This document shows, piece after piece, positions 49,084 through 59,326 of a stretch of 64,000 nt of DNA. Within the stretch, counting starts at the first letter, position 1; each line of letters starts with the position of its first letter. The stretch comes from an uncultured cyanobacterium. Its GTDB lineage: Bacteria; Cyanobacteriota; Cyanobacteriia; Pseudanabaenales; Pseudanabaenaceae. The stretch lies in the NCBI GenBank assembly GCA_963703315.1, contig OY969811.1, positions 2,752,001 through 2,816,000 on the forward strand, in the 5' to 3' direction. A program made the translations under genes and the position numbers. The notes below the pieces were generated by a model. The model saw only the letters and a program-made list of their open reading frames with translations, made no database searches and was not told where the DNA came from.

Positions 49084-49187
49084 TAAGTATCTGAGCATAG
49101 TTAAAAACCAGAACCAAAACCTGTGGCGCACGCTGCGCGTGCGCCACAGGTTTTGGGATTGTATATTTAATTGCGCCCAGATACTTA
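49084..49187. mobile_element. 104-bp MITE-like repeat, copy 1
   Basis: Ends TAAGTATCTG../..CAGATACTTA, central hairpin CCAAAACCTGTGGCGCAC..GTGCGCCACAGGTTTTGG; near-identical copy at 60726-60829. Confidence 0.8.
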
Positions 49188-49289: not shown

Positions 49290-49339
49290 AGGCGATCGCT
49301 TGATTGCTTGTTTACAGGTTTATGAGTATGCTGATCGCA
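49290..49339 (+). repeat. 50-bp direct repeat, left copy (starts with HIP1)
   Basis: AGGCGATCGCTTGATTGCTTGTTTACAGGTTTA...; 44/50 identical to 50544-50593. Confidence 0.85.
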
Positions 49340-49404
49340 TAGAGAATATTGCTAAAATATTCAGTAAATTCATCATTTCAGTGTATCGCTTGGAGAATCT
49401 GTGT

Positions 49405-49611
49405 ATGCTAACTAGACAAAGGCTTGAACTATTATCGGCAAGTGCTTGGGATGTTGCCATGAGTGAGATTAATAGTAGCAATCCAGAAAAGCTAAATCTC
49501 AGACGACAAAGAATCAATCAATTATTTACAACATGGGCTATGTTGGACAGTGAAGATGAACAGAAAGAAGCATTGAAAGTCATTGCATCTGTTGAAGGTG
49601 TTTCGATCTAA
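49405..49611 (+). CDS. small hypothetical protein, probable orphan antitoxin
   Basis: GGAG before ATG 49405; stop overlaps (TAATG) the start of a truncated PIN-like ORF. Confidence 0.55.
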   Translation: MLTRQRLELLSASAWDVAMSEINSSNPEKLNLRRQRINQLFTTWAMLDSEDEQKEALKVIASVEGVSI

Positions 49612-49676
49612 TGAGTCAGATTATCTTTTTGGATTCTACGCCTGTTGGATTAATTGCGAATCATTACGAATTCTAA
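49611..49676 (+). pseudogene. 5' stub of a PIN-like toxin gene
   Basis: MSQIIFLDSTPVGLIAN resembles a PIN N-terminus (hhhLDS/T); ends after 21 codons against the opposing PIN gene. Confidence 0.55.
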
Positions 49677-50119
49677 TAGGAAGAAGATTTTTCAGTTGCC
49701 CAGTCTTCAATTGATAAGTTTGGAATTTGTCCAAAATCCTTAGCATTGCGGGTAATTACAGTGGCGTTGATAGATAAGGCGATCGCGGCGATCCTTAAAT
49801 CTCTTGTCCCCAAACGCCTAAACTGGCGGCGCAAAATCTCAAACTGATTATAAGCTTTAGTGTCAAAACTAACTCTCTGTATAGTTTGGAAGAAATCCAA
49901 AGCTTTCTCAATCTCTGAATAGGCTAAAAGTAGTCTTGATGACTGGGAGGCTTGGCTATATTTATTAATTTCACTGAGCCATCCTTGACAAATCTCTTCA
50001 GCCGTTATGATTGAGATGGCTAGGTCATTTGGTTCGGTTTGAAATACGCGATCACAAACCAGATTATTTCCTTTGAGAAATAAAGAAGCATGATCGGTAT
50101 CAAGTATCAATAGACTCAA
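49673..50119 (-). CDS. VapC/PIN toxin
   Basis: LILDTDH, ITAEE, DLRIAAIAL, TRNAKDF..IPNLSIEDW. Confidence 0.9.
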   Translation of the reverse strand: MSLLILDTDHASLFLKGNNLVCDRVFQTEPNDLAISIITAEEICQGWLSEINKYSQASQSSRLLLAYSEIEKALDFFQTIQRVSFDTKAYNQFEILRRQFRRLGTRDLRIAAIALSINATVITRNAKDFGQIPNLSIEDWATEKSSSY

Positions 50120-50472
50120 GCGATTTTTTCCTCTTGATAGTCAATTTTGGTCTGTGAATCTAGTTCACGACGATGAGATTCAATGTTGGCTAGTACGGAG
50201 TCAAATAGCTGACTATTTTTATAAATTCCTGCGAACTTTCGCCAAGGATGTTCTTGTTTGGGAATTTCTAGTTCTAGAGATATGACTTCATTCTCTGATA
50301 AATTTGCAGTAATTAATCGATCTAATTCAGAAATAGCTGAGTGGCGATCGCTGCTAGTAACTCTATATTCAGGCAGTTCTAATGCTCTAGCGCTGACTCT
50401 ACCATCTTTTTCATTTTTGACTAAGACGTTAATAGACAGTTTAGTTTGTCCGTTAATCAGTTTAGCGTTCAT
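50116..50472 (-). CDS. antitoxin partner (HicB-like N-terminus)
   Basis: Overlaps the PIN start; EHPWRKFAG..FDSVL motif; start at ATG 50472. Confidence 0.72.
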   Translation of the reverse strand: MNAKLINGQTKLSINVLVKNEKDGRVSARALELPEYRVTSSDRHSAISELDRLITANLSENEVISLELEIPKQEHPWRKFAGIYKNSQLFDSVLANIESHRRELDSQTKIDYQEEKIA

Positions 50473-50543
50473 AAAATTTACCTTTGGCGATCGCATTGCT
50501 TACAATGCTTTATATTATGACACTGCTTAATGATTATGGGCAT

Positions 50544-50593
50544 AGGCGATCGCTTGATTGCTTGTTGACAGGTTTAGGTGTGTGGCGATCGCA
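50544..50593 (+). repeat. 50-bp direct repeat, right copy (HIP1 at both ends)
   Basis: AGGCGATCGCTTGATTGCTTGTTGACAGGTTTAGGTGTGTGGCGATCGCA. Confidence 0.85.
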
Positions 50594-50783
50594 ATAATTA
50601 CTCTATGAACTTTGTGAGCTTTTACATATTTTAAAAGTTTTTAATCCTTAGAAAATTTAGAAAAAAGGACATAAAAGTATTATCCTAAAAATAGTGGGTG
50701 TGATATTTTTTAGGGTTGGTGTTGCTCTAATTTCTGCAAATTTCTGGGGAATAGTCCTCAAAGTCTATTGAGAGTAAATCAAG

Positions 50784-51422
50784 ATGTCTATAAATAATAC
50801 TGAGATTCGTTTGCTTCTAAATCTATGGGATTTGGGGGAAGGTCAAGGCATGGTAAACAAGGGTAAGGTCTTACCGTCCTTTAGTGGAAAGGATAAGGAT
50901 ATTAAGAAGGCTGAGTATAAGAATGCTTTGCAGATTTTGATCGATGGTGGGGCGATCGCTGTGTCTACTAAGTATTCGCTGACAGATGCGGGTTTGCAGA
51001 GGTTGGCTGATGGTTTACGATCGCCTGATTTTAGTTTTGAGGGGGCAACGTTGGTCAGCAGCCGTTTGGCAAATGCGGCTTTGCGATGGTTTCAGCAAAA
51101 TTCCGATCAGGTAGTAAGTGTTGAGTCTGCGCCTAAGATTTCGTCTTACGATGAGTTTAAGGTTGTGGCTTTAGAAACTTATAAGCGTCTGAGCTATGAA
51201 TCTAATGTAAGTAAGCTCGTCCCTATCTATCAGATCCGCCGTGATATTGGCGATCGCGTGACTCGTACTCAGTTTAATGACTGGATGCTAGAGATGCATC
51301 GCACTGATGTTTTGCATTTGCATGATGGCGGTTCTTTGCAGGCAACGGAAGATCAAGCTAAGGACTCGATATATAGCGAGTTACTAAAAACTTACTACTT
51401 CAACGCCGAACTGTTTAACTAA
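50784..51422 (+). CDS. cyanobacterial winged-helix-like protein (RcaD-like)
   Basis: LLLNLWDLG..; C-terminal SYDEFK..LVPIYQIRR..TRTQFNDWMLEM resembles, from memory, RcaD-type proteins encoded upstream of ATPases. Confidence 0.6.
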   Translation: MSINNTEIRLLLNLWDLGEGQGMVNKGKVLPSFSGKDKDIKKAEYKNALQILIDGGAIAVSTKYSLTDAGLQRLADGLRSPDFSFEGATLVSSRLANAALRWFQQNSDQVVSVESAPKISSYDEFKVVALETYKRLSYESNVSKLVPIYQIRRDIGDRVTRTQFNDWMLEMHRTDVLHLHDGGSLQATEDQAKDSIYSELLKTYYFNAELFN

Positions 51423-51442
51423 TCATCCAACTTTTTCCCATC

Positions 51443-53995
51443 ATGATTGCCCATAAAAATCCATTTCTCAAACCTCCAATTGTCAACTCAAAAGATATTT
51501 GGAGTGATCAGATCTCTGACTTTGAGGAAATTCATGCAGATGCTTCTCAAAAAATATTTGACGCTTTACAACAAGTCAAGGGGACTTTTTCAATTGCTGT
51601 TGTCGGCAATGTCGGCTCAGGAAAAACCCAGCTTTTTTCTAGGGTTCGTCATAAACTTTCTAGCAATACGGAAGCTTTTTGTGTCTATATAAATGCCGAT
51701 CAGATTGCCTCACTAGATTTTGTCTCTGTTGCATTTCAGCAATTCTTAGTTGATAGCCTTTTTCACACTGGAAAATCTGGAGTCACCTATTTACAAGAAA
51801 TTGCTACTAATCTGGTAAATCAGGCATTAGAAGGGATTAAATCAACCAAACGATTTTCTACTCATGAATTACTAGATCAGTTCAATCAACTTGCAACTAA
51901 TAAATCGTTGGTTGATAAAATTACTGGACAAGTTCAACAACTAAAGCCCTATCTATCAGATAGTTCAGAGGTGATTCGGGCTTTGCTTTGGACTTTATCA
52001 GCATCTAGCAAGCCTATTCTAGATGAATCAGATTTTTTGTCAGATTCTCCCACATCATCAAAGTCAACTAACTACTATCTTGCACCTAGTGCTACAGATT
52101 GGCTTAAAGGTATTGAAATTAATGCAGATGATGCTCAAATCATGAAACTATCTAATAAAAGTTTCAAGGATGAAGAGAAAGAATCAGAAGCGCTAAGACG
52201 TGCAATGCAGCTATTGCGTATAGCATCTGAGTACAAATCAGTAGTTATTTGTTTTGATGAATTAGATGCAATCAAACATAATAAACACGCAACTGGAACG
52301 GCAGAAGTAATTTCAGACTTGATCAAGACATTGCATAATGGGTTAGATAAAGTTGAATGTAGAAACTCGATTTTAATATTGTCTCTTTGGGTCAATGATA
52401 CATTTAGAAAGTCGGACTTTCTAACTACTTTTGGCTTAATAGAAAGAGTTTGTTCACTAGCTGATTTAAATAAAGAGCCAATTTCGCTAGATAAAAATCT
52501 TCTCACTGAAGACACTGGACTCAGATTAGTTGATTTTTGGCTTGATAAGTTGAATGCGAAAAACGCAGAAAATTCTTATCAACCATTGGGCGGTGAAGAA
52601 AAGATTAGACATTTTTGTAAAAATCGTCCTAATCCCAGACAACTATGGCGCTGGTGTGCTGAAAACTGGATGGAACAACCAGAGCCAGTTGGCGGAAAAG
52701 TCACTCCTCCACCTCCACCTCCTGTTGATCTTGATTTGATTTATCAAAGTCTGATAGATGATGAGTACTCTCAACTCATAGAAGATGATGATTTAGTAGT
52801 TAAGTCTTTGATTTTTGGCTTCAACAAGGCAATTACACAAACAGTTGAGAAAGTCTTAATCAAAAAAATCACAACACAACCCAAAACTGCTAGATTTCAA
52901 TTCAAAATCGAAGGCATTGAAGATGGAAAACCTGTCTCAATTGGTGTTGGTGTTTGTCAGTCTGCAAAGGCTGCAACAGTTGGTGCAATGTTGCTAAGGC
53001 TTTTGGACTATCAAAGATACAAATTAACTCGCGGCTGTCTAGTACGCTCCAAAAACAAGAGAATCAGCCCAAGAACTCAAGCTTTTGAAAATCTAACTAA
53101 ACTCATAAGCGCACCTTTTAACGGCGAATTTGTACCTCTCAAATATGCCGAAGTTGTTGAAGTTTATGCTTTGTTTTTGCTATCACAACATCCTGAAGTA
53201 GCAACACTAAATCCTGATGAAGTTGATAAATTTATTATTGAGAAAGCCATTAATAATGGATTAATCAAAGAAATCCTCAGCGATCCATCTGGTGAAATCC
53301 CTGCTGCTGCAATCTCGCAACCCACATCATTTAGCGATACTGGAAATACAGCTAAAAGCAATGATACAGGCTTATCTGATGATGACTTTAAGGTTACTGA
53401 TGACGATGACAAAGAAGATGAACTAGAGAAGTTAATTAGTGATTTGCTATCAGAGCAGTACTCAGAGCCTTTAATTGTCATATCTCATAACAGGGATGAA
53501 GATACAGGCTCTCTGTATGGTCTATTTGTAGATATCAATCGCAATTTTTTCTTCGATTATCAAATCACTGATTCGGGCGTTGCTTACCAACCTTGTGAAT
53601 TTATCAGAGAATTATCAAAGGGGAAACTAAAAATCCTGTCCGCACTTAATACTGATGAGATGGTTGCATTAATGCGGCTTCTCAGAATATCTAAGGCGAT
53701 CGGTGGATCAGTCACAATCCTTGACGATAAAGATTTTGAAGACCAAGAAGCAGCTTTAGAAATTTATGGTTTCTATCCTCCAGATTTAGATGCTAACCCA
53801 GCAATTTATTACAGACACGAACAGCTAGGTGTATCCATTGGCGCTCAACTATTTTGGGGTGATGACGATACCGAGAGCCTGTCTTTTGGCTTTGTGAATG
53901 ATATTCAAACAGAAGATTTTTCTGTATTTGATAGCTTTGATGAAGCTCTAGACTTTGGCATCATGCGCCTAAACTACTACATCGAAGAGTCATAA
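51443..53995 (+). CDS. P-loop/AAA+ ATPase with nuclease-fold-like middle region and acidic C-terminal extension
   Basis: Walker A GNVGSGKT, Walker B VVICFDELD, poly-Pro linker, YKLTRGCLVRS region, D/E-rich tail. Confidence 0.82.
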   Translation: MIAHKNPFLKPPIVNSKDIWSDQISDFEEIHADASQKIFDALQQVKGTFSIAVVGNVGSGKTQLFSRVRHKLSSNTEAFCVYINADQIASLDFVSVAFQQFLVDSLFHTGKSGVTYLQEIATNLVNQALEGIKSTKRFSTHELLDQFNQLATNKSLVDKITGQVQQLKPYLSDSSEVIRALLWTLSASSKPILDESDFLSDSPTSSKSTNYYLAPSATDWLKGIEINADDAQIMKLSNKSFKDEEKESEALRRAMQLLRIASEYKSVVICFDELDAIKHNKHATGTAEVISDLIKTLHNGLDKVECRNSILILSLWVNDTFRKSDFLTTFGLIERVCSLADLNKEPISLDKNLLTEDTGLRLVDFWLDKLNAKNAENSYQPLGGEEKIRHFCKNRPNPRQLWRWCAENWMEQPEPVGGKVTPPPPPPVDLDLIYQSLIDDEYSQLIEDDDLVVKSLIFGFNKAITQTVEKVLIKKITTQPKTARFQFKIEGIEDGKPVSIGVGVCQSAKAATVGAMLLRLLDYQRYKLTRGCLVRSKNKRISPRTQAFENLTKLISAPFNGEFVPLKYAEVVEVYALFLLSQHPEVATLNPDEVDKFIIEKAINNGLIKEILSDPSGEIPAAAISQPTSFSDTGNTAKSNDTGLSDDDFKVTDDDDKEDELEKLISDLLSEQYSEPLIVISHNRDEDTGSLYGLFVDINRNFFFDYQITDSGVAYQPCEFIRELSKGKLKILSALNTDEMVALMRLLRISKAIGGSVTILDDKDFEDQEAALEIYGFYPPDLDANPAIYYRHEQLGVSIGAQLFWGDDDTESLSFGFVNDIQTEDFSVFDSFDEALDFGIMRLNYYIEES

Positions 53996-54004
53996 AACCA
54001 AACA

Positions 54005-55375
54005 ATGCGCCTCGAATTATCTTTAACAGTCGATCCAACAGACTACAAAAAACTAACAACGGGAGAGAATATCGCTATTCTCTTCCGTCCTTTTCCCGTT
54101 GGCAGAAAATTCGCATTAGCGCCACTAATAAACAGTGACAATAGTGAAAAAATTGAATTTCTTACCAATACCTATGTAGAAATTGTAGACAAAGAAGTTA
54201 TTAGTCAAGACAAAATCAATAATGACTTGGCTAAAATACTAAGCATAACTTTAGAAGATCTGCAAACAAAGCTAAATAATGCCGATAACTTGCTACTAAT
54301 GTACTTTCGAGTTTATTGCTTTGAACCACAGATCAAAGTTTTCACCAGTAATCAAATCGGCTTTATCCCATTACCACAAGTAACAGAAATCAAGAACCCC
54401 GTCCCATTATTTAGCGATCATCTATTCCAAAAACGAAAACAAGAAATTAAATCGCGCCAGCCATCCAAACATTCAAAACTAGAAAACTTACAAATATCTC
54501 TTAATCAACTATCAATTACAAATCCATTAGCCCAAGTCCTGAATCAACAAATTCAAACTTTTTTAGGCTATACGGATAACACACCCACAAGAATAAATAA
54601 TCAAAATTTATCTTGGATTAGCACTATTTCAACTTTAGGCGATCGCAGTATTGAAACAGATACAGGTAAGAACAACTGGCAAGCAGGGACAGATTTTGAA
54701 AATATTGCAAAGCAAGGCTTAGAATTTCTAGGCTTTACAATTGATGAATCCCATAAAGGTGGAGCGGGAGGCTTAGATTTATTCTGTTCAAAACCTTATC
54801 CACTAACAGGAGAATGTAAAGCAGGAAAAAGCGTTCCCAGTCGCACAACCGAAGAATTGCTTAAGCTTGGAGGTATGAGATTAGGAATAGATAAATTTTT
54901 AGAATCTAAAAAACTAATTATTGGTGCTGGCAAAATCAATAACGATGTAATTACAGCCTCTCACGAATGGAAAGTTAGTATTATTAAAGCTATGACATTA
55001 CAAAAACTCGTTGAACTCAAAGCCAAATATGATGGCGCTATCAATCTATTTGAACTCAAGGAACATTTGCAAGCAGGACAAATTGATGACAAAATTCATG
55101 AGTATATCCAAAAGGTTGAAAGTGAGATCAAACTGCGATCATACATTGTTAAAACTGTTAAAGAACTGCAAGATACAGACTCTGAATATCCTAGTCCAAT
55201 TGAAATTCGGACTCATTACAACGCTAAAAAACAAGGTTCCAATCTTAGTCTTGATTCCACTAAAGAAATACTAATCGAGCTTTCTTCACCATTGGCGGGA
55301 TATTTGGGAAGAGTTAAGGGTGATGGAGGAAAAGGCGATCGCTTTTATTACTTACGAGATTTACCAATTGAATAG
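54005..55375 (+). CDS. DUF1802/PUA-like domain fused to a PD-(D/E)xK (Mrr-like) endonuclease with wHTH-like C-terminus
   Basis: GTDFE..LEFLGF..GGAGGLDL..GECKAG catalytic pattern; the N-terminal assignment is inferred. Confidence 0.75.
   Translation: MRLELSLTVDPTDYKKLTTGENIAILFRPFPVGRKFALAPLINSDNSEKIEFLTNTYVEIVDKEVISQDKINNDLAKILSITLEDLQTKLNNADNLLLMYFRVYCFEPQIKVFTSNQIGFIPLPQVTEIKNPVPLFSDHLFQKRKQEIKSRQPSKHSKLENLQISLNQLSITNPLAQVLNQQIQTFLGYTDNTPTRINNQNLSWISTISTLGDRSIETDTGKNNWQAGTDFENIAKQGLEFLGFTIDESHKGGAGGLDLFCSKPYPLTGECKAGKSVPSRTTEELLKLGGMRLGIDKFLESKKLIIGAGKINNDVITASHEWKVSIIKAMTLQKLVELKAKYDGAINLFELKEHLQAGQIDDKIHEYIQKVESEIKLRSYIVKTVKELQDTDSEYPSPIEIRTHYNAKKQGSNLSLDSTKEILIELSSPLAGYLGRVKGDGGKGDRFYYLRDLPIE
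55294..55363 (+). repeat. direct repeat A (3' end of the nuclease gene; HIP1 at 55335-55342)
   Basis: GGCGGGATATTTGGGAAGAGTTAAGGGTGATGGAGGAAAAGGCGATCGCTTTTA.. Confidence 0.92.
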
Positions 55376-55392
55376 ATAACTAAGAAAATATT

Positions 55393-55683
55393 ATGGAACT
55401 ACAACAAGCCCTAACAATTCTAGAAAACCATCGTCATCAAATCAAAACCTTAAATGTAAAATCGCTATCTATTTTCGGATCAGTCGCTAGAAACGAAGCT
55501 ACAGAAAACAGTGATATTGACTTTGTAGTAGAGTTTGAAGGAACTACAACCTTTGACAAATATATGGACTTAAAAATTTTTCTAGAAGACACATTACAAA
55601 CAAAAGTCGATCTCGCCACATGGCGATCGCTAAAACCTCAAATTAAAACTAACATAAATAAGGAAGCCATCCGTGTCGCGTAG
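55393..55683 (+). CDS. minimal nucleotidyltransferase antitoxin (MntA-like)
   Basis: IFGSVARNE..SDIDFVVEF, KVDL. Confidence 0.92.
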   Translation: MELQQALTILENHRHQIKTLNVKSLSIFGSVARNEATENSDIDFVVEFEGTTTFDKYMDLKIFLEDTLQTKVDLATWRSLKPQIKTNINKEAIRVA

Positions 55684-56020
55684 CTTAAAACTCTATCTAG
55701 AAGACATCTTAAAGAGCGGTAACAAAGTACTAGATTTTACCGTAAACATGACCATCGAAGAACTTGTAAGAGATGAGCGCACATTTGACGCGGTTGCTCA
55801 TAACTTACAAATCATCGGAGAAGCTACAAAAAACATACCTGAAGAAATACGCTCTCAATATCCTCAAGTTGAATGGAGAAAAATCGCAGGACTACGGGAT
55901 ATTATTGCTCATGCATATTTCAGTATTGACGAAGAAATTATCTGGGATATTATCCAAAACAAACTTTCAATTTTATTAGAGCAAATCCAAAACATTCTTC
56001 TCAATTATGTAGAGGAGTAA
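55673..56020 (+). CDS. HEPN/DUF86 RNase toxin (HepT-like)
   Basis: IIGEA, WRKIAGLRDIIAHAYF (RX4H), IIWD. Confidence 0.92.
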   Translation: MSRSLKLYLEDILKSGNKVLDFTVNMTIEELVRDERTFDAVAHNLQIIGEATKNIPEEIRSQYPQVEWRKIAGLRDIIAHAYFSIDEEIIWDIIQNKLSILLEQIQNILLNYVEE

Positions 56021-56067
56021 AAATAGCGGACAAAGTGATCGAGATTCATACTTCCAGACGAGCCTAA

Positions 56068-56132
56068 GATATTTGGGCAGAGTTAAGGGTGATGGAAGAA
56101 AAGGCGATCGCTTTTACTCCCTGCGAGACTTA
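56068..56132 (+). repeat. direct repeat B (displaced 3' end of a nuclease allele; HIP1 at 56104-56111)
   Basis: Reads YLGRVKGDGRKGDRFYSLRDL versus YLGRVKGDGGKGDRFYYLRDL in the gene. Confidence 0.92.
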
Positions 56133-56217
56133 TTGCTACGATAAATAAGTGACATTTACCAAAAATGTTAAAATCATCTACGCTAGTCTACTAAAACAGA
56201 CCAACTGGAGTAACACT

Positions 56218-56445
56218 ATGCTTTTGCAAGAACTTAAGAATCAGGTGCGTAAATTACCTGTAAGCGATCGCCTAGAACTTGTGCGCTCTATCATCGATTC
56301 GATCCAAGAAATTCCAATTTCAAAACCTACGCGAACCCAAGCAATCAGCCGCATGAAAGGTTTACTCAAAACTAGTCAGCCATCCCCGACCGATGCTGAA
56401 GTCGGATCAATGTTAGAACAGCATCGCATGGAGAAATACCTCTAA
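56218..56445 (+). CDS. putative antitoxin
   Basis: GGAG + ATG 56218; MLLQELK..LPVSDRLELV..GLLKT..EKYL; TAATG coupling to the PIN gene. Confidence 0.78.
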   Translation: MLLQELKNQVRKLPVSDRLELVRSIIDSIQEIPISKPTRTQAISRMKGLLKTSQPSPTDAEVGSMLEQHRMEKYL

Positions 56446-56855
56446 TGAAAGTTCTTGTTGACACAAATGTTCTACTTGATTTTTTGTTAGAAAGAGAACC
56501 TTTTAAAAAGGATGCAGAAGAACTGTTTGCAGCGATCGACTCTGGACAAATCATTGGCTATATAACCGCTACAACCCTGACCGATATTTTCTACATTGCG
56601 CGTAAACATACTCGCAGCCTAGAACTCGCAAGAGAAGCAGTTTCCAGCACCTTAGAAACCATGACTATTTGTCCAATCAATCGAAATGTCTTAGAGGCAG
56701 TATTTACATCTGGCTTAACAGATTTTGAAGATGCTGTCCAGATTTATGGTGCGATCGCTCAAAATTTAGATGCAATAGTAACCCGTGATGCTAAAGGATT
56801 TGTAAGTTCAACTATCCCTGTATACTCTGTTCAAGAATTACTAAAGAGATTGTGA
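56445..56855 (+). CDS. PIN-domain toxin
   Basis: VLVDTNVLLDFLL, TTLTDIFY, DFEDAVQ, AIVTRD..F. Confidence 0.92.
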   Translation: MKVLVDTNVLLDFLLEREPFKKDAEELFAAIDSGQIIGYITATTLTDIFYIARKHTRSLELAREAVSSTLETMTICPINRNVLEAVFTSGLTDFEDAVQIYGAIAQNLDAIVTRDAKGFVSSTIPVYSVQELLKRL

Positions 56856-56864
56856 AATGCTAAA

Positions 56865-56913
56865 GGCGGGATATTTAGGAAGAGTTAAGGGTGATGGAAG
56901 AAAAGGCGATCGC
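56865..56913 (+). repeat. direct repeat C, ending exactly at HIP1
   Basis: GGCGGGATATTTAGGAAGAGTTAAGGGTGATGGAAGAAAAGGCGATCGC, 47/49 identical to repeat A. Confidence 0.92.
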
Positions 56914-57047
56914 AGGTTATGGGGAGATGGATAGGCGATCGCTATTTAATTTATTTTTGAGAGAGGCGATCGCTCAGGTTGCTAAGTATTGATTCTCCCG
57001 TAAGCAGAAATTGTGTCATAGTTTTTTAATACTTTAGGTAAGCAGCT

Positions 57048-57929
57048 ATGAGTGGGAGAGTCTTAGGGACAACCAAAATTTTAGGGGTGATGGGTTTTCC
57101 TGTGAGTCACAGCCTTTCACCTGTAATGCATAATGCCGCGATCGCCGCGATGGGTCTGGACTATGTGTATGTGCCATTTCCGATCCCCATTGACGATTTA
57201 CCTGCGGCGATCGCGGGGTTAAAGGCAATTCAATCAGTACAGGGCTTTAATCTGACAATTCCCCATAAAGTTGAAGTGATCCCCTTACTTGATGAGATTT
57301 TACCAATCGCTCAATCTGTTGGTGCAGTCAATACCGTCAAGCGTATTGGCGATCGCTGGGTTGGCACAAATACTGACGTGGCAGGTTTCCTAGCTCCACT
57401 CAAGCAACTTAACTGTGACTGGACACAACTGCCAGCCGTAATCCTTGGTAGTGGTGGTGCAGCAAAGGCAGTTGTTGCCGCCTGTTTAGAGCTTGGTTGC
57501 CCTGTCATCCATGTAGTAGGACGCGATCCCAAAAAACTCAAAAAATTTCACGGCACAATGACTAGTCAACTCCGCGATTACAATCTGCGCGTCCATCCTT
57601 GGGCTTCATTACCGCATTTGCTCGAAGTCGCAGGCATTGTCATCAACGCGACACCGATCGGCATGGCTAGTGATCCGCATACGCCTATTTCCGAGACAGA
57701 GATAGCTATGCTCTCTGAGCAAGCGATCGCCTATGATTTGATTTACACTCCTCGCCCCACTAAGTTTTTACAAATCGCTACGGCAAGAGGACTTAAAGCG
57801 ATCGATGGGTTGGAAATGCTAATTAATCAAGGGGCGATCGCCCTTGAATGGTGGCTGGATCAACCAGTTCCGACTGAAATTATGCGACAAGCTCTATTGG
57901 AACATCTTACTTACGAAAGTTTGCATTAG
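57048..57929 (+). CDS. aroE: shikimate dehydrogenase
   Basis: PVSHSLSP, NLTIPHK, GAVNT, GTNTD, INATPIGM, DGLEML. Confidence 0.96.
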   Translation: MSGRVLGTTKILGVMGFPVSHSLSPVMHNAAIAAMGLDYVYVPFPIPIDDLPAAIAGLKAIQSVQGFNLTIPHKVEVIPLLDEILPIAQSVGAVNTVKRIGDRWVGTNTDVAGFLAPLKQLNCDWTQLPAVILGSGGAAKAVVAACLELGCPVIHVVGRDPKKLKKFHGTMTSQLRDYNLRVHPWASLPHLLEVAGIVINATPIGMASDPHTPISETEIAMLSEQAIAYDLIYTPRPTKFLQIATARGLKAIDGLEMLINQGAIALEWWLDQPVPTEIMRQALLEHLTYESLH

Positions 57930-57992: not shown

Positions 57993-58862
57993 CTATGCAG
58001 TTACTTCACTCTTACGACGGTTTCTCTTGGCAATAGACCATGCCGACCATGCTCCAAATACAACAGGAGCAAGGAATCCCGCAGGTACTGGAACTGGAAC
58101 TGGTTGAACTTGTCCTTCTCTTACTTGAAAAGTATAACGCCCAAGAACATTACTGTTGAGGCTGTTACGAATCAATGCAGTTGACAGAGGTCCATTATCC
58201 AAGAAAGCACCATTTGAGAAGGAACCAAGCAATTGGAAGAAACTGCCAGATACACCAGTACCATTAGAGTAGCCTACAGCAGCAGATGTACCACCTAAGC
58301 CATTTGTACCATTGCTTGCGTCACCAGTTTCCCATTGAATTTGATCATAGTTAAACTCAATGTCAAAGTTATTGGTTCCAGTATCAGCGCGATTAATCAA
58401 CAACAACTGAAAACTATTCAGCAAATCAGCTCTAGTGTTATAGTAACCAACATTTCTGTAGCTAACACCAAAGGCATTGCGACCATCCACTGTCCCATTT
58501 CCATACCTAGTTAGTCCACTCGCAGGATTTCGAGTATCTACGTCAGCAAAGAATGCAGCAATGATAGGTATACTTGTAGAACCATTCAGAGCAAAAGGGG
58601 TGTATTCAAATTGTGCTGAATTAAAAGTTATATTTCCATTGTTGTTAACAAATGTATTGGAATAGTTAGTACCAAAAAAGTTAACATCGAAACCAATGGG
58701 GACAGCACCTGTAGAATCATCATCATTTGCAGATAATACATTGCTATCAAATCCTGTTCTAATAGCAGCAGCACTAGCAGATGTTGCCATGCTTACACTA
58801 AATGCCAAAGTACAAAGACCGCCAACAACAGCTTTTTGTATATTAGTTAGTACTTGTGCCAT
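57993..58862 (-). CDS. secreted nidogen-like (NIDO) domain protein with PEP-CTERM-like tail
   Basis: Signal peptide, NDDDST, FVNNNGNITF, IIAAFFADVDTR, IQWETGDAS; VPVPA-TM-KRNRRK; alternative GTG start at 58904. Confidence 0.85.
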   Translation of the reverse strand: MAQVLTNIQKAVVGGLCTLAFSVSMATSASAAAIRTGFDSNVLSANDDDSTGAVPIGFDVNFFGTNYSNTFVNNNGNITFNSAQFEYTPFALNGSTSIPIIAAFFADVDTRNPASGLTRYGNGTVDGRNAFGVSYRNVGYYNTRADLLNSFQLLLINRADTGTNNFDIEFNYDQIQWETGDASNGTNGLGGTSAAVGYSNGTGVSGSFFQLLGSFSNGAFLDNGPLSTALIRNSLNSNVLGRYTFQVREGQVQPVPVPVPAGFLAPVVFGAWSAWSIAKRNRRKSEVTA

Positions 58863-59326
58863 AAATCTGTTCCTCAAACTTGAAGTTAATGAAATAGAAC
58901 TCACCTAAATTACGAGAGCAATTAAACTAAGTTATTACACACCAAGCTTTTTGTTACTACTTCAGCAACGAAATTAAATAGATTAACTTAAGTTAATTAC
59001 CAAAATAGATATTTCGAGATGCATAAGTAAATAAATTTTTGATTACTACTTATTGAATAAATTGTAATTTGATACATCGTAATTAATGAAAATATACTCT
59101 TTTTCGATAAAATTTAGCAAGTAACTTTTAGTTATATCTTTAGTCATATATTTCAACTAATTTTAGTTACTTTAGTTATATTTAGTTACTTTTGGTTATA
59201 TATCAAACACATGATCATAAGAAAAAAACCAAATATTTTTCAGGGGAAATTATATTTATTCGTTTAAGCTCAGAAGTATTTTTGCAGATAATCCTCAACT
59301 ATTCAGGATTATCTGCTTTTTGGTAT

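Follow-up and report, generated by a model that had tools for sequence, protein, structure and literature searches.

In a 64,000-nt stretch of the genome of an uncultured cyanobacterium of the Pseudanabaenaceae (contig OY969811.1, positions 2,752,001 to 2,816,000; here called the window), a gene of the DUF1802 family is followed by an array of putative toxin-antitoxin (TA) cassettes, which are separated by direct copies of the 3' end of this gene, each with the highly iterated palindrome HIP1. The same repeat was found in almost all genomes of the genus, where it separates a shared pool of cassettes in variable order, and each cassette carries its own copy of the gene end. In our preferred reading, to which we give an even chance, host homologous recombination moves these cassettes, probably during natural transformation and with crossovers favouring HIP1.

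The repeat corresponds to the last ~22 codons of the 456-aa gene. A preliminary description made from the letters alone had listed three direct copies of this gene end with HIP1 at 55335, 56104 and 56906 (spacing 769 and 802 bp), and both were reproduced, with the copies located at 55299, 56068 and 56870 and the alignments of A and C reaching further left, to 55294 and 56865 (Table 1). Over 65 nt, the identity to repeat A was 89% for B and 72% for C; repeat C equals A at 47 of 49 nt and its similarity ceases at the final HIP1 base, also as described. The peptide of repeat B reads YLGRVKGDGRKGDRFYSLRDLL vs YLGRVKGDGGKGDRFYYLRDLP in the predicted nuclease gene. A family search assigned NTP_transf_2 (MntA-like) and HepT-like to interval 1 and PIN_3 together with a weak Unstab_antitox match below cut-off to interval 2, consistent with the one two-gene TA module per interval proposed before. 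As this genome (4.57 Mb, single contig) holds 8231 HIP1 sites (1.8 per kb), the presence of HIP1 alone is no evidence, and the 49–65-bp matches carry it; for the same reason the two additional HIP1 noticed after copy C, found again at 56935 and 56966, mean little by themselves. Genome-wide BLAST gave E values of 4e-18 and 2e-16 for copies B and C, and the sole further repeat pair above background was C1:4285699-4286183. The stretch 56914..56973 showed a weak likeness to HIP1-bracketed spacers of an array immediately ahead of the window (E 0.004 over 17.5 kb). An assembly artefact, which would have overturned the earlier description, was not the cause: contigs of metagenome run X1, possibly the source sample, span repeat A with 0–1 differences and reach B and C from both sides, overlapping within each repeat, and a 754-nt identical contig of run X3 begins at 55336. 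With these contigs and arrays in dozens of independent assemblies, the window array is confirmed as real. The further pair, at locus L050, is an orphan mini-array and consists of a NACHT gene, a left-shortened repeat, the T1-type DUF433 gene, whose partner is missing, and a repeat broken just after HIP1.

Table 1. Features of the array and its surroundings (positions in the window).
Feature	Position	Strand	Remarks
HIP1-bracketed ~47-bp spacer, copy 1	49292..49338	+	87% identical to 50546-50593
PIN gene and 126-aa partner	49673..50496	-	PIN gene 49673-50119, partner 50116-50496; pair found inside arrays of relatives too
HIP1-bracketed spacer, copy 2	50546..50593	+	
212-aa gene, operon gene 1	50784..51422	+	precedes ATPase and nuclease in relatives too
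P-loop (AAA/KAP-like) ATPase, 850 aa, operon gene 2	51443..53995	+	
DUF1802-family gene, 456 aa, operon gene 3	54005..55375	+	from homologue names and PF08819; final codons and stop are part of cassette 1
Repeat A (inside gene)	55299..55365	+	HIP1 55335-55342
Cassette 1, type T17, 769 bp HIP1 to HIP1	55335..56103	+	MntA-like 55393-55683, HepT-like 55673-56020
Repeat B	56068..56134	+	HIP1 56104-56111
Cassette 2, type T6, 802 bp	56104..56905	+	antitoxin-like 56218-56445, PIN_3 56445-56855
Repeat C, right end of array	56865..56913	+	left arm plus HIP1 (56906-56913), without right arm
Stretch with two further HIP1 (56935, 56966)	56914..56973	+	right of copy C
aroE, right flank	57048..57929	+	

Of 48 genomes of the genus, 46 contain the repeat and 40 have at least two copies of it. 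Together with the window, 63 loci fetched by repeat matches (60 in the genus and three outside) gave 64 stretches with 207 repeats, 184 of them with a perfect HIP1, and 145 inter-repeat segments, which fall into 18 recurring types (120 segments) and 25 singletons. All repeats are in direct orientation and the cassettes are co-oriented, with a near-fixed HIP1-to-HIP1 length for each type (e.g. 751 bp in 8/11 for T3). The predicted families are mostly TA (DUF433/DUF5615, DUF2281/PIN, ParE, YoeB, MNT/HEPN, DUF4258 and BrnT-like). Of the two cassettes in the window, ordered T17 and then T6, the first also occurs at locus L038, likewise with 769 bp and in another context, and the second is represented by nine of the 145 segments (801–847 bp) with differing neighbours. 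The 40 multi-cassette arrays show 38 orders, and their adjacent type pairs (53 distinct of 63) equal shuffled ones (P 0.54); because the order is as mixed as in the shuffle, this fits cassettes moving singly. The arrays are located among housekeeping genes. A promoter scan of the cassettes was at background (six found, 5.4 expected), an Rfam search gave a chance match only, neither gene nor repeat was matched among 72,556 plasmid records, and the repeat was without a match in a phage search.

For the crossover map, same-type cassettes with at least 97% identity and different neighbours were compared (38 junction pairs). For left arms, mismatches numbered 43 (134 expected) in the repeat that follows a cassette and 159 (165 expected) in the one that precedes it. 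The right arm of the repeat before the cassette gave the converse but weaker signal with 38 mismatches vs 69 expected, compared to 50 vs 56 for the right arm of the repeat after it. A cassette unit starts with HIP1 and continues with the right arm, which holds the final codons and the stop of the gene, then the TA pair and lastly the left arm. As the best single breakpoint lies at -5 to 0 relative to HIP1 and linkage is weak out to +19, most crossovers are placed at about -5 to +20. Uniform crossovers were rejected by simulation (P<=0.0003), as were identity-weighted nulls in 8 of 10 settings (P<=0.03). Junction edges are ragged with crossovers spread over ~25 bp, and a strict single-point crossover was dropped as unsupported by likelihood. 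Linkage over all same-type cassettes is absent inside the core and visible only among near-identical ones, which therefore implies repeated turnover.

Outside the gene, the repeat still looks like a working gene end. The right arms of 119 non-gene copies, which share ancestry, showed 165 synonymous vs 48 other changed codons, where single changes give a chance ratio of 16:65; copy B had earlier been read as the tail of another allele from its mostly synonymous differences. An in-frame stop follows soon after the RDL motif in copies of all 18 cassette types. Directly behind the gene (24 copies), 14 types occupy the first place and provide its stop codon, as in the window, where the stop lies in T17-owned sequence. 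From coding signature, stops and gene-adjacent types it follows that cassettes either move through the position of the gene or are renewed from there. Judged from the sequences, the cassettes bring a replacement 3' end that restores the target gene, as in integrative islands. Damaged right arms were rarer at the first non-gene position (2/23) than further on (14/38; P 0.018, post hoc), and were similarly frequent in arrays without (20/85) and with (16/61) a linked nuclease gene. The serial integration of cassettes suggested before is supported by the variable number, content and order among relatives, by the replacement gene end and by crossovers concentrated at a HIP1-centred core. For its counterpart, excision as circles, a double crossover of linear DNA would yield the same product.

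At the array ends, the right arm is absent in 15/45 terminal vs 4/145 internal repeats, and by our reading of the alignments 11 terminal losses break within 4 nt after HIP1, as in copy C. Among these truncations, L083 (terminal) and L089 (internal) are register errors and L051 (internal) is a short deletion. Array ends such as copy C are likely products of crossovers with unrelated chromosomal HIP1 sites. Of 103 loci compared for the state outside the genus, eight genus-type loci, 12 without a parsed tail and three without a full gene were set aside. HIP1 occupies the same codons in 68 of the 80 full-gene loci counted. A single tail copy lies downstream of the gene in 15 of the 80, and for 13 of these copies the alignment starts at 0 to -4 relative to HIP1 and runs to the stop. 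Of the loci examined, only those of this genus showed long arrays with both arms. The outside copies are the product expected from a cargo-trailing HIP1 crossing over with the in-gene HIP1. The arrays could have originated in this way: for DNA anchored by homology in the gene, the second crossover would have joined the in-gene HIP1 to one that follows a neighbouring TA pair, with duplication of the gene tail as the result; the simpler state is present in Nostoc and others. At nine Nostoc loci (L142, L144, L154, L155, L161, L173, L182, L183 and L188), the HIP1 of the gene and a tail copy running from HIP1 to the stop enclose a pair of genes (105 aa and 120 aa) encoded on the other strand, and two loci hold one more small gene pair.

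Under host homologous recombination, cassettes would be added, lost and reordered one at a time. A cassette on transforming DNA (or a circle) would recombine with any of the resident repeats, at HIP1 or immediately to its right, and upon entry at the gene's own copy the cassette tail would restore the reading frame. The TA pairs may persist because cassette loss would be toxic, and some may be anti-phage. The genes comEC, dprA and recA are present in this genome. In Synechococcus PCC 7002, homologous HIP1 increased integration up to 7-fold, and more than 100-fold with methylation (10.1101/2024.09.10.611283), and older reports of recombination at HIP1 are cited elsewhere (PMC4390886, PMC13756078, PMC9239245). 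A further step, which we consider less likely than not, is that crossovers in a host-encoded, integrase-free cassette system take place actively at HIP1, with the DUF1802 tail in this genus as the shared site for trading a TA pool between species. If true, HIP1 near the 3' end could turn any gene into a dock comparable to attI. Cassette arrays would then have a fourth route of formation, next to integrons, dif modules and integrative islands, and HIP1 would have a concrete function.

Several points weigh against the preferred reading or the special role of HIP1 within it. The upstream-side linkage is weak at +13..+19 (ratio 0.77–0.98), hence the crossovers are not at one base. A null needing 18-nt perfect blocks was not rejected (P 0.07). 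By likelihood, a HIP1-only model about ties with a uniform one for disjoint pairs at >=97% identity (best -388.0 vs -386.2) and is beaten by it at >=95% identity (-767 for uniform vs -780). Moreover, the simulated statistic was chosen post hoc and the junction pairs are partly dependent. HIP1 supplies 71% of the 8-mer and 88% of the 10-mer genome matches to the repeat, so HIP1 breaks are expected without any special activity. There was no clear trend of polarity along arrays (Spearman P 0.20), and 66 bp is short for RecA. Neither a circle nor an empty form of this strain was seen among the metagenome contigs, which cannot show circles. Of the outside tail copies, 9 of 13 share one cargo and may be one event, and in L215, another outside case, the left arm has diverged. 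The contig joints 55315-56092 and 56885-56104 were repeat-to-repeat matches from other strains and no circle evidence.

The same host recombination with a passive HIP1 is the best surviving alternative, though we consider it rather unlikely. HIP1 would then be no more than part of the longest conserved stretch (the HIP1-Asp-Arg-Phe-Tyr block) and the commonest chromosomal microhomology. Repeat positions 0..+12 are indeed nearly invariant, and the 18-nt null, the likelihoods and the overlap of 71–88% of the genome microhomology partners with HIP1 all suit this explanation. However, for block lengths up to 14 nt the nulls give P<=0.03, the block -35..-22 is equally conserved yet shows few crossovers, and the effect of HIP1 on integration in PCC 7002 (10.1101/2024.09.10.611283) also counts against it.

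Less probable still is a dedicated enzyme at a HIP1-centred site, either a ~510-aa tyrosine recombinase in trans, or the ATPase and nuclease of the operon cutting the gene tail, followed by capture through repair. The near-palindromic core (four A, HIP1, four T) and the single-cassette moves would agree with this, and HIP1-linked site-specific recombination has been reported for PCC 7002 (cited in PMC4390886). A matching ~510-aa tyrosine-recombinase open reading frame (ORF) occurs in many genomes of the genus, in this genome once, plus one weak match far off. Nevertheless, no recombinase family was detected among 47 cassette and neighbour proteins nor among 120 cluster representatives of flanking 150–700-aa ORFs, and this genome has no serine recombinase. 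Ragged edges over ~25 bp, variation that tracks codons and not inverted binding arms, and the equal intactness of arrays without a linked nuclease gene speak against an enzyme as well.

That the array is a cluster of attC sites lacking an integron-integrase (CALIN), with IntI acting in trans, is very improbable. Co-oriented cassettes with one repeat each and TA cargo would fit, and IntI scores over the cut-off in 23 of 48 genomes of the genus, with none listed inside a fetched array locus. By contrast, the attC test, which combined fold z-scores and core motif (R''/R') pairs, revealed no hairpin (z between +0.2 and +0.5 on either strand of repeats A and B) and core pairs at 2/145 junctions vs 1.6 in shuffled sequences; the repeat is coding sequence, and the best IntI score in this genome is 32 bits vs a cut-off of 265. 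Since an attC fold and a linked recombinase are both missing and this genome lacks IntI, the array is not an integron, and this reading was rejected. Of the earlier view of an integron-like array without an integrase, the absence of an integrase nearby holds and the likeness is one of resemblance only. Finally, target-site or tandem duplications are hardly credible, like the artefact dismissed above and contradicted by arrays in independent contigs: the similarity between neighbouring repeats slightly exceeds that between unrelated ones (0.78 vs 0.76, P 0.008), a difference so small that it excludes duplication in place, identical adjacent left arms occur in 1/112, and the arms travel with the cassette, a linkage that refutes duplication.

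Among known systems, the HIP1-associated cases (smtB excision, and plasmid recombination and transformation in PCC 7002; PMC13756078, PMC4390886, 10.1101/2024.09.10.611283) share with the window array the crossover at GCGATCGC, but are single events or engineered constructs, unlike the natural genus-wide cassette pool described here. Integrons and CALIN (Cury et al. 2016, PMC4889954) likewise hold small co-oriented cassettes with one recombination site each, variable order and TA cargo, and their arrays may be without a linked integrase. In contrast, our array has neither attC structure and core motifs nor IntI, its site is a coding gene tail, and its crossovers spread over ~25 bp without clear polarity. 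The dif modules of Acinetobacter (pdif/XerCD; PMC13141974) are similarly integrase-free, often carry TA genes and are shuffled between repeated sites by host machinery. Unlike these, the cassettes here are chromosomal without plasmid match, and their sites are 66-bp gene-tail copies, all direct. A 28-bp XerC/XerD site as in dif modules is not evident in the repeats, whose variation follows codons, although no dif model was run. Islands at gene 3' ends (SCCmec at rlmH, tRNA islands, also in tandem arrays) bring a replacement 3' end, and their serial entry repeats the tail; they encode their own integrase and span many kb. The cassettes here differ in their size of 0.35–1 kb, in that no integrase was found and in that both site arms are repeated. 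Orphan cassettes of polymorphic toxins (CDI, Rhs, MafB) and minimal mobile elements of Neisseria form toxin-immunity arrays after main-gene fragments through homologous exchange, where a cassette swaps the functional toxin domain. In our case, it replaces about ten codons and brings separate TA genes. Homology-facilitated illegitimate recombination (PMC3240628), with an anchor and a microhomology crossover, would yield the first tail copy and the HIP1-broken ends; it is a process and not an array system, and the abstract does not connect it with HIP1.

No published description of such an array was found in the literature, with most subscription papers outside the search. We regard the array as a real new variant among cassette arrays. 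It works like integrons and dif modules, but it does not pass the tests for an integron, and it has no integrase of the kind that gene-end islands carry. The function of HIP1 is still called largely open (PMC13756078), and the arrays are a natural test of its role: with ~200 natural junctions with markers flanking HIP1 and a clonable 66-bp site, the question of a HIP1 hotspot becomes directly assayable. Integrase-free, integron-like TA shuffling would escape attC-based tools, and the arrays may explain the pile-up of TA genes beside defence operons in cyanobacteria.

The 456-aa gene is the third of an operon. Its relatives are named DUF1802 proteins, and as the nearest named ones are from Pseudanabaena, this is likely the genus. 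The protein is predicted to combine an ASCH/PUA-like barrel with a restriction-type nuclease; its AlphaFold model (mean pLDDT 71) led to weak fold matches, with FokI-type nucleases and with YqfB/ASCH, of which none reached E<=0.001. The closest allele (88%), at L002/L041 (G023:C100), carries an internal TGA. For the 212-aa product of operon gene 1, a family search gave no match, and a helix-turn-helix protein is a guess; an identification of the first two operon genes as RcaD/RcaG was not confirmed and was dropped. Operon neighbourhoods differ between relatives, often with an adjoining agmatine-deiminase-family gene (18 loci).

The variability among relatives lies at many loci of the repeat family and not in the interval between the nuclease gene and aroE, for which a comparison had been proposed earlier: no array was present at 29 other aroE loci (1.5 kb fetched upstream). 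As GH57 and aroE, the flanks here, are adjacent in six of these 29 and all 29 are array-free, ~49290-56970 is an insertion, with spacer copy 1 as its likely left edge; relatives at this site are ~83–87% identical, hence the island ends are only approximate. Copies of this spacer repeat lie on both sides of the PIN pair, to the left of the operon, and further ones were found in the vicinity of many arrays. In three of the metagenome runs, contigs connect 49338 to 50629 through 24 nt of different sequence. The short inverted-repeat element at 49116-49155 is a dispersed repeat: in each of the four runs, its contig depth was very high and loose ends were numerous.

At six loci (L038, L049, L052, L059, L062 and L084), ATPase and nuclease are replaced between the 212-aa gene and the first repeat by MmeI-type restriction-modification, UvrD-like helicase, AAA_21 ATPase or unassigned 627–1057-aa genes, and the 212-aa gene and the repeat may be the homology arms of a swappable defence slot. 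The entire operon or a remnant of it stands between two repeats, cassette-like, in L041, L062 and L038. Beyond aroE, the minus strand encodes a NIDO-domain secreted protein (57993-58904) with what we take to be a PEP-CTERM-like tail.

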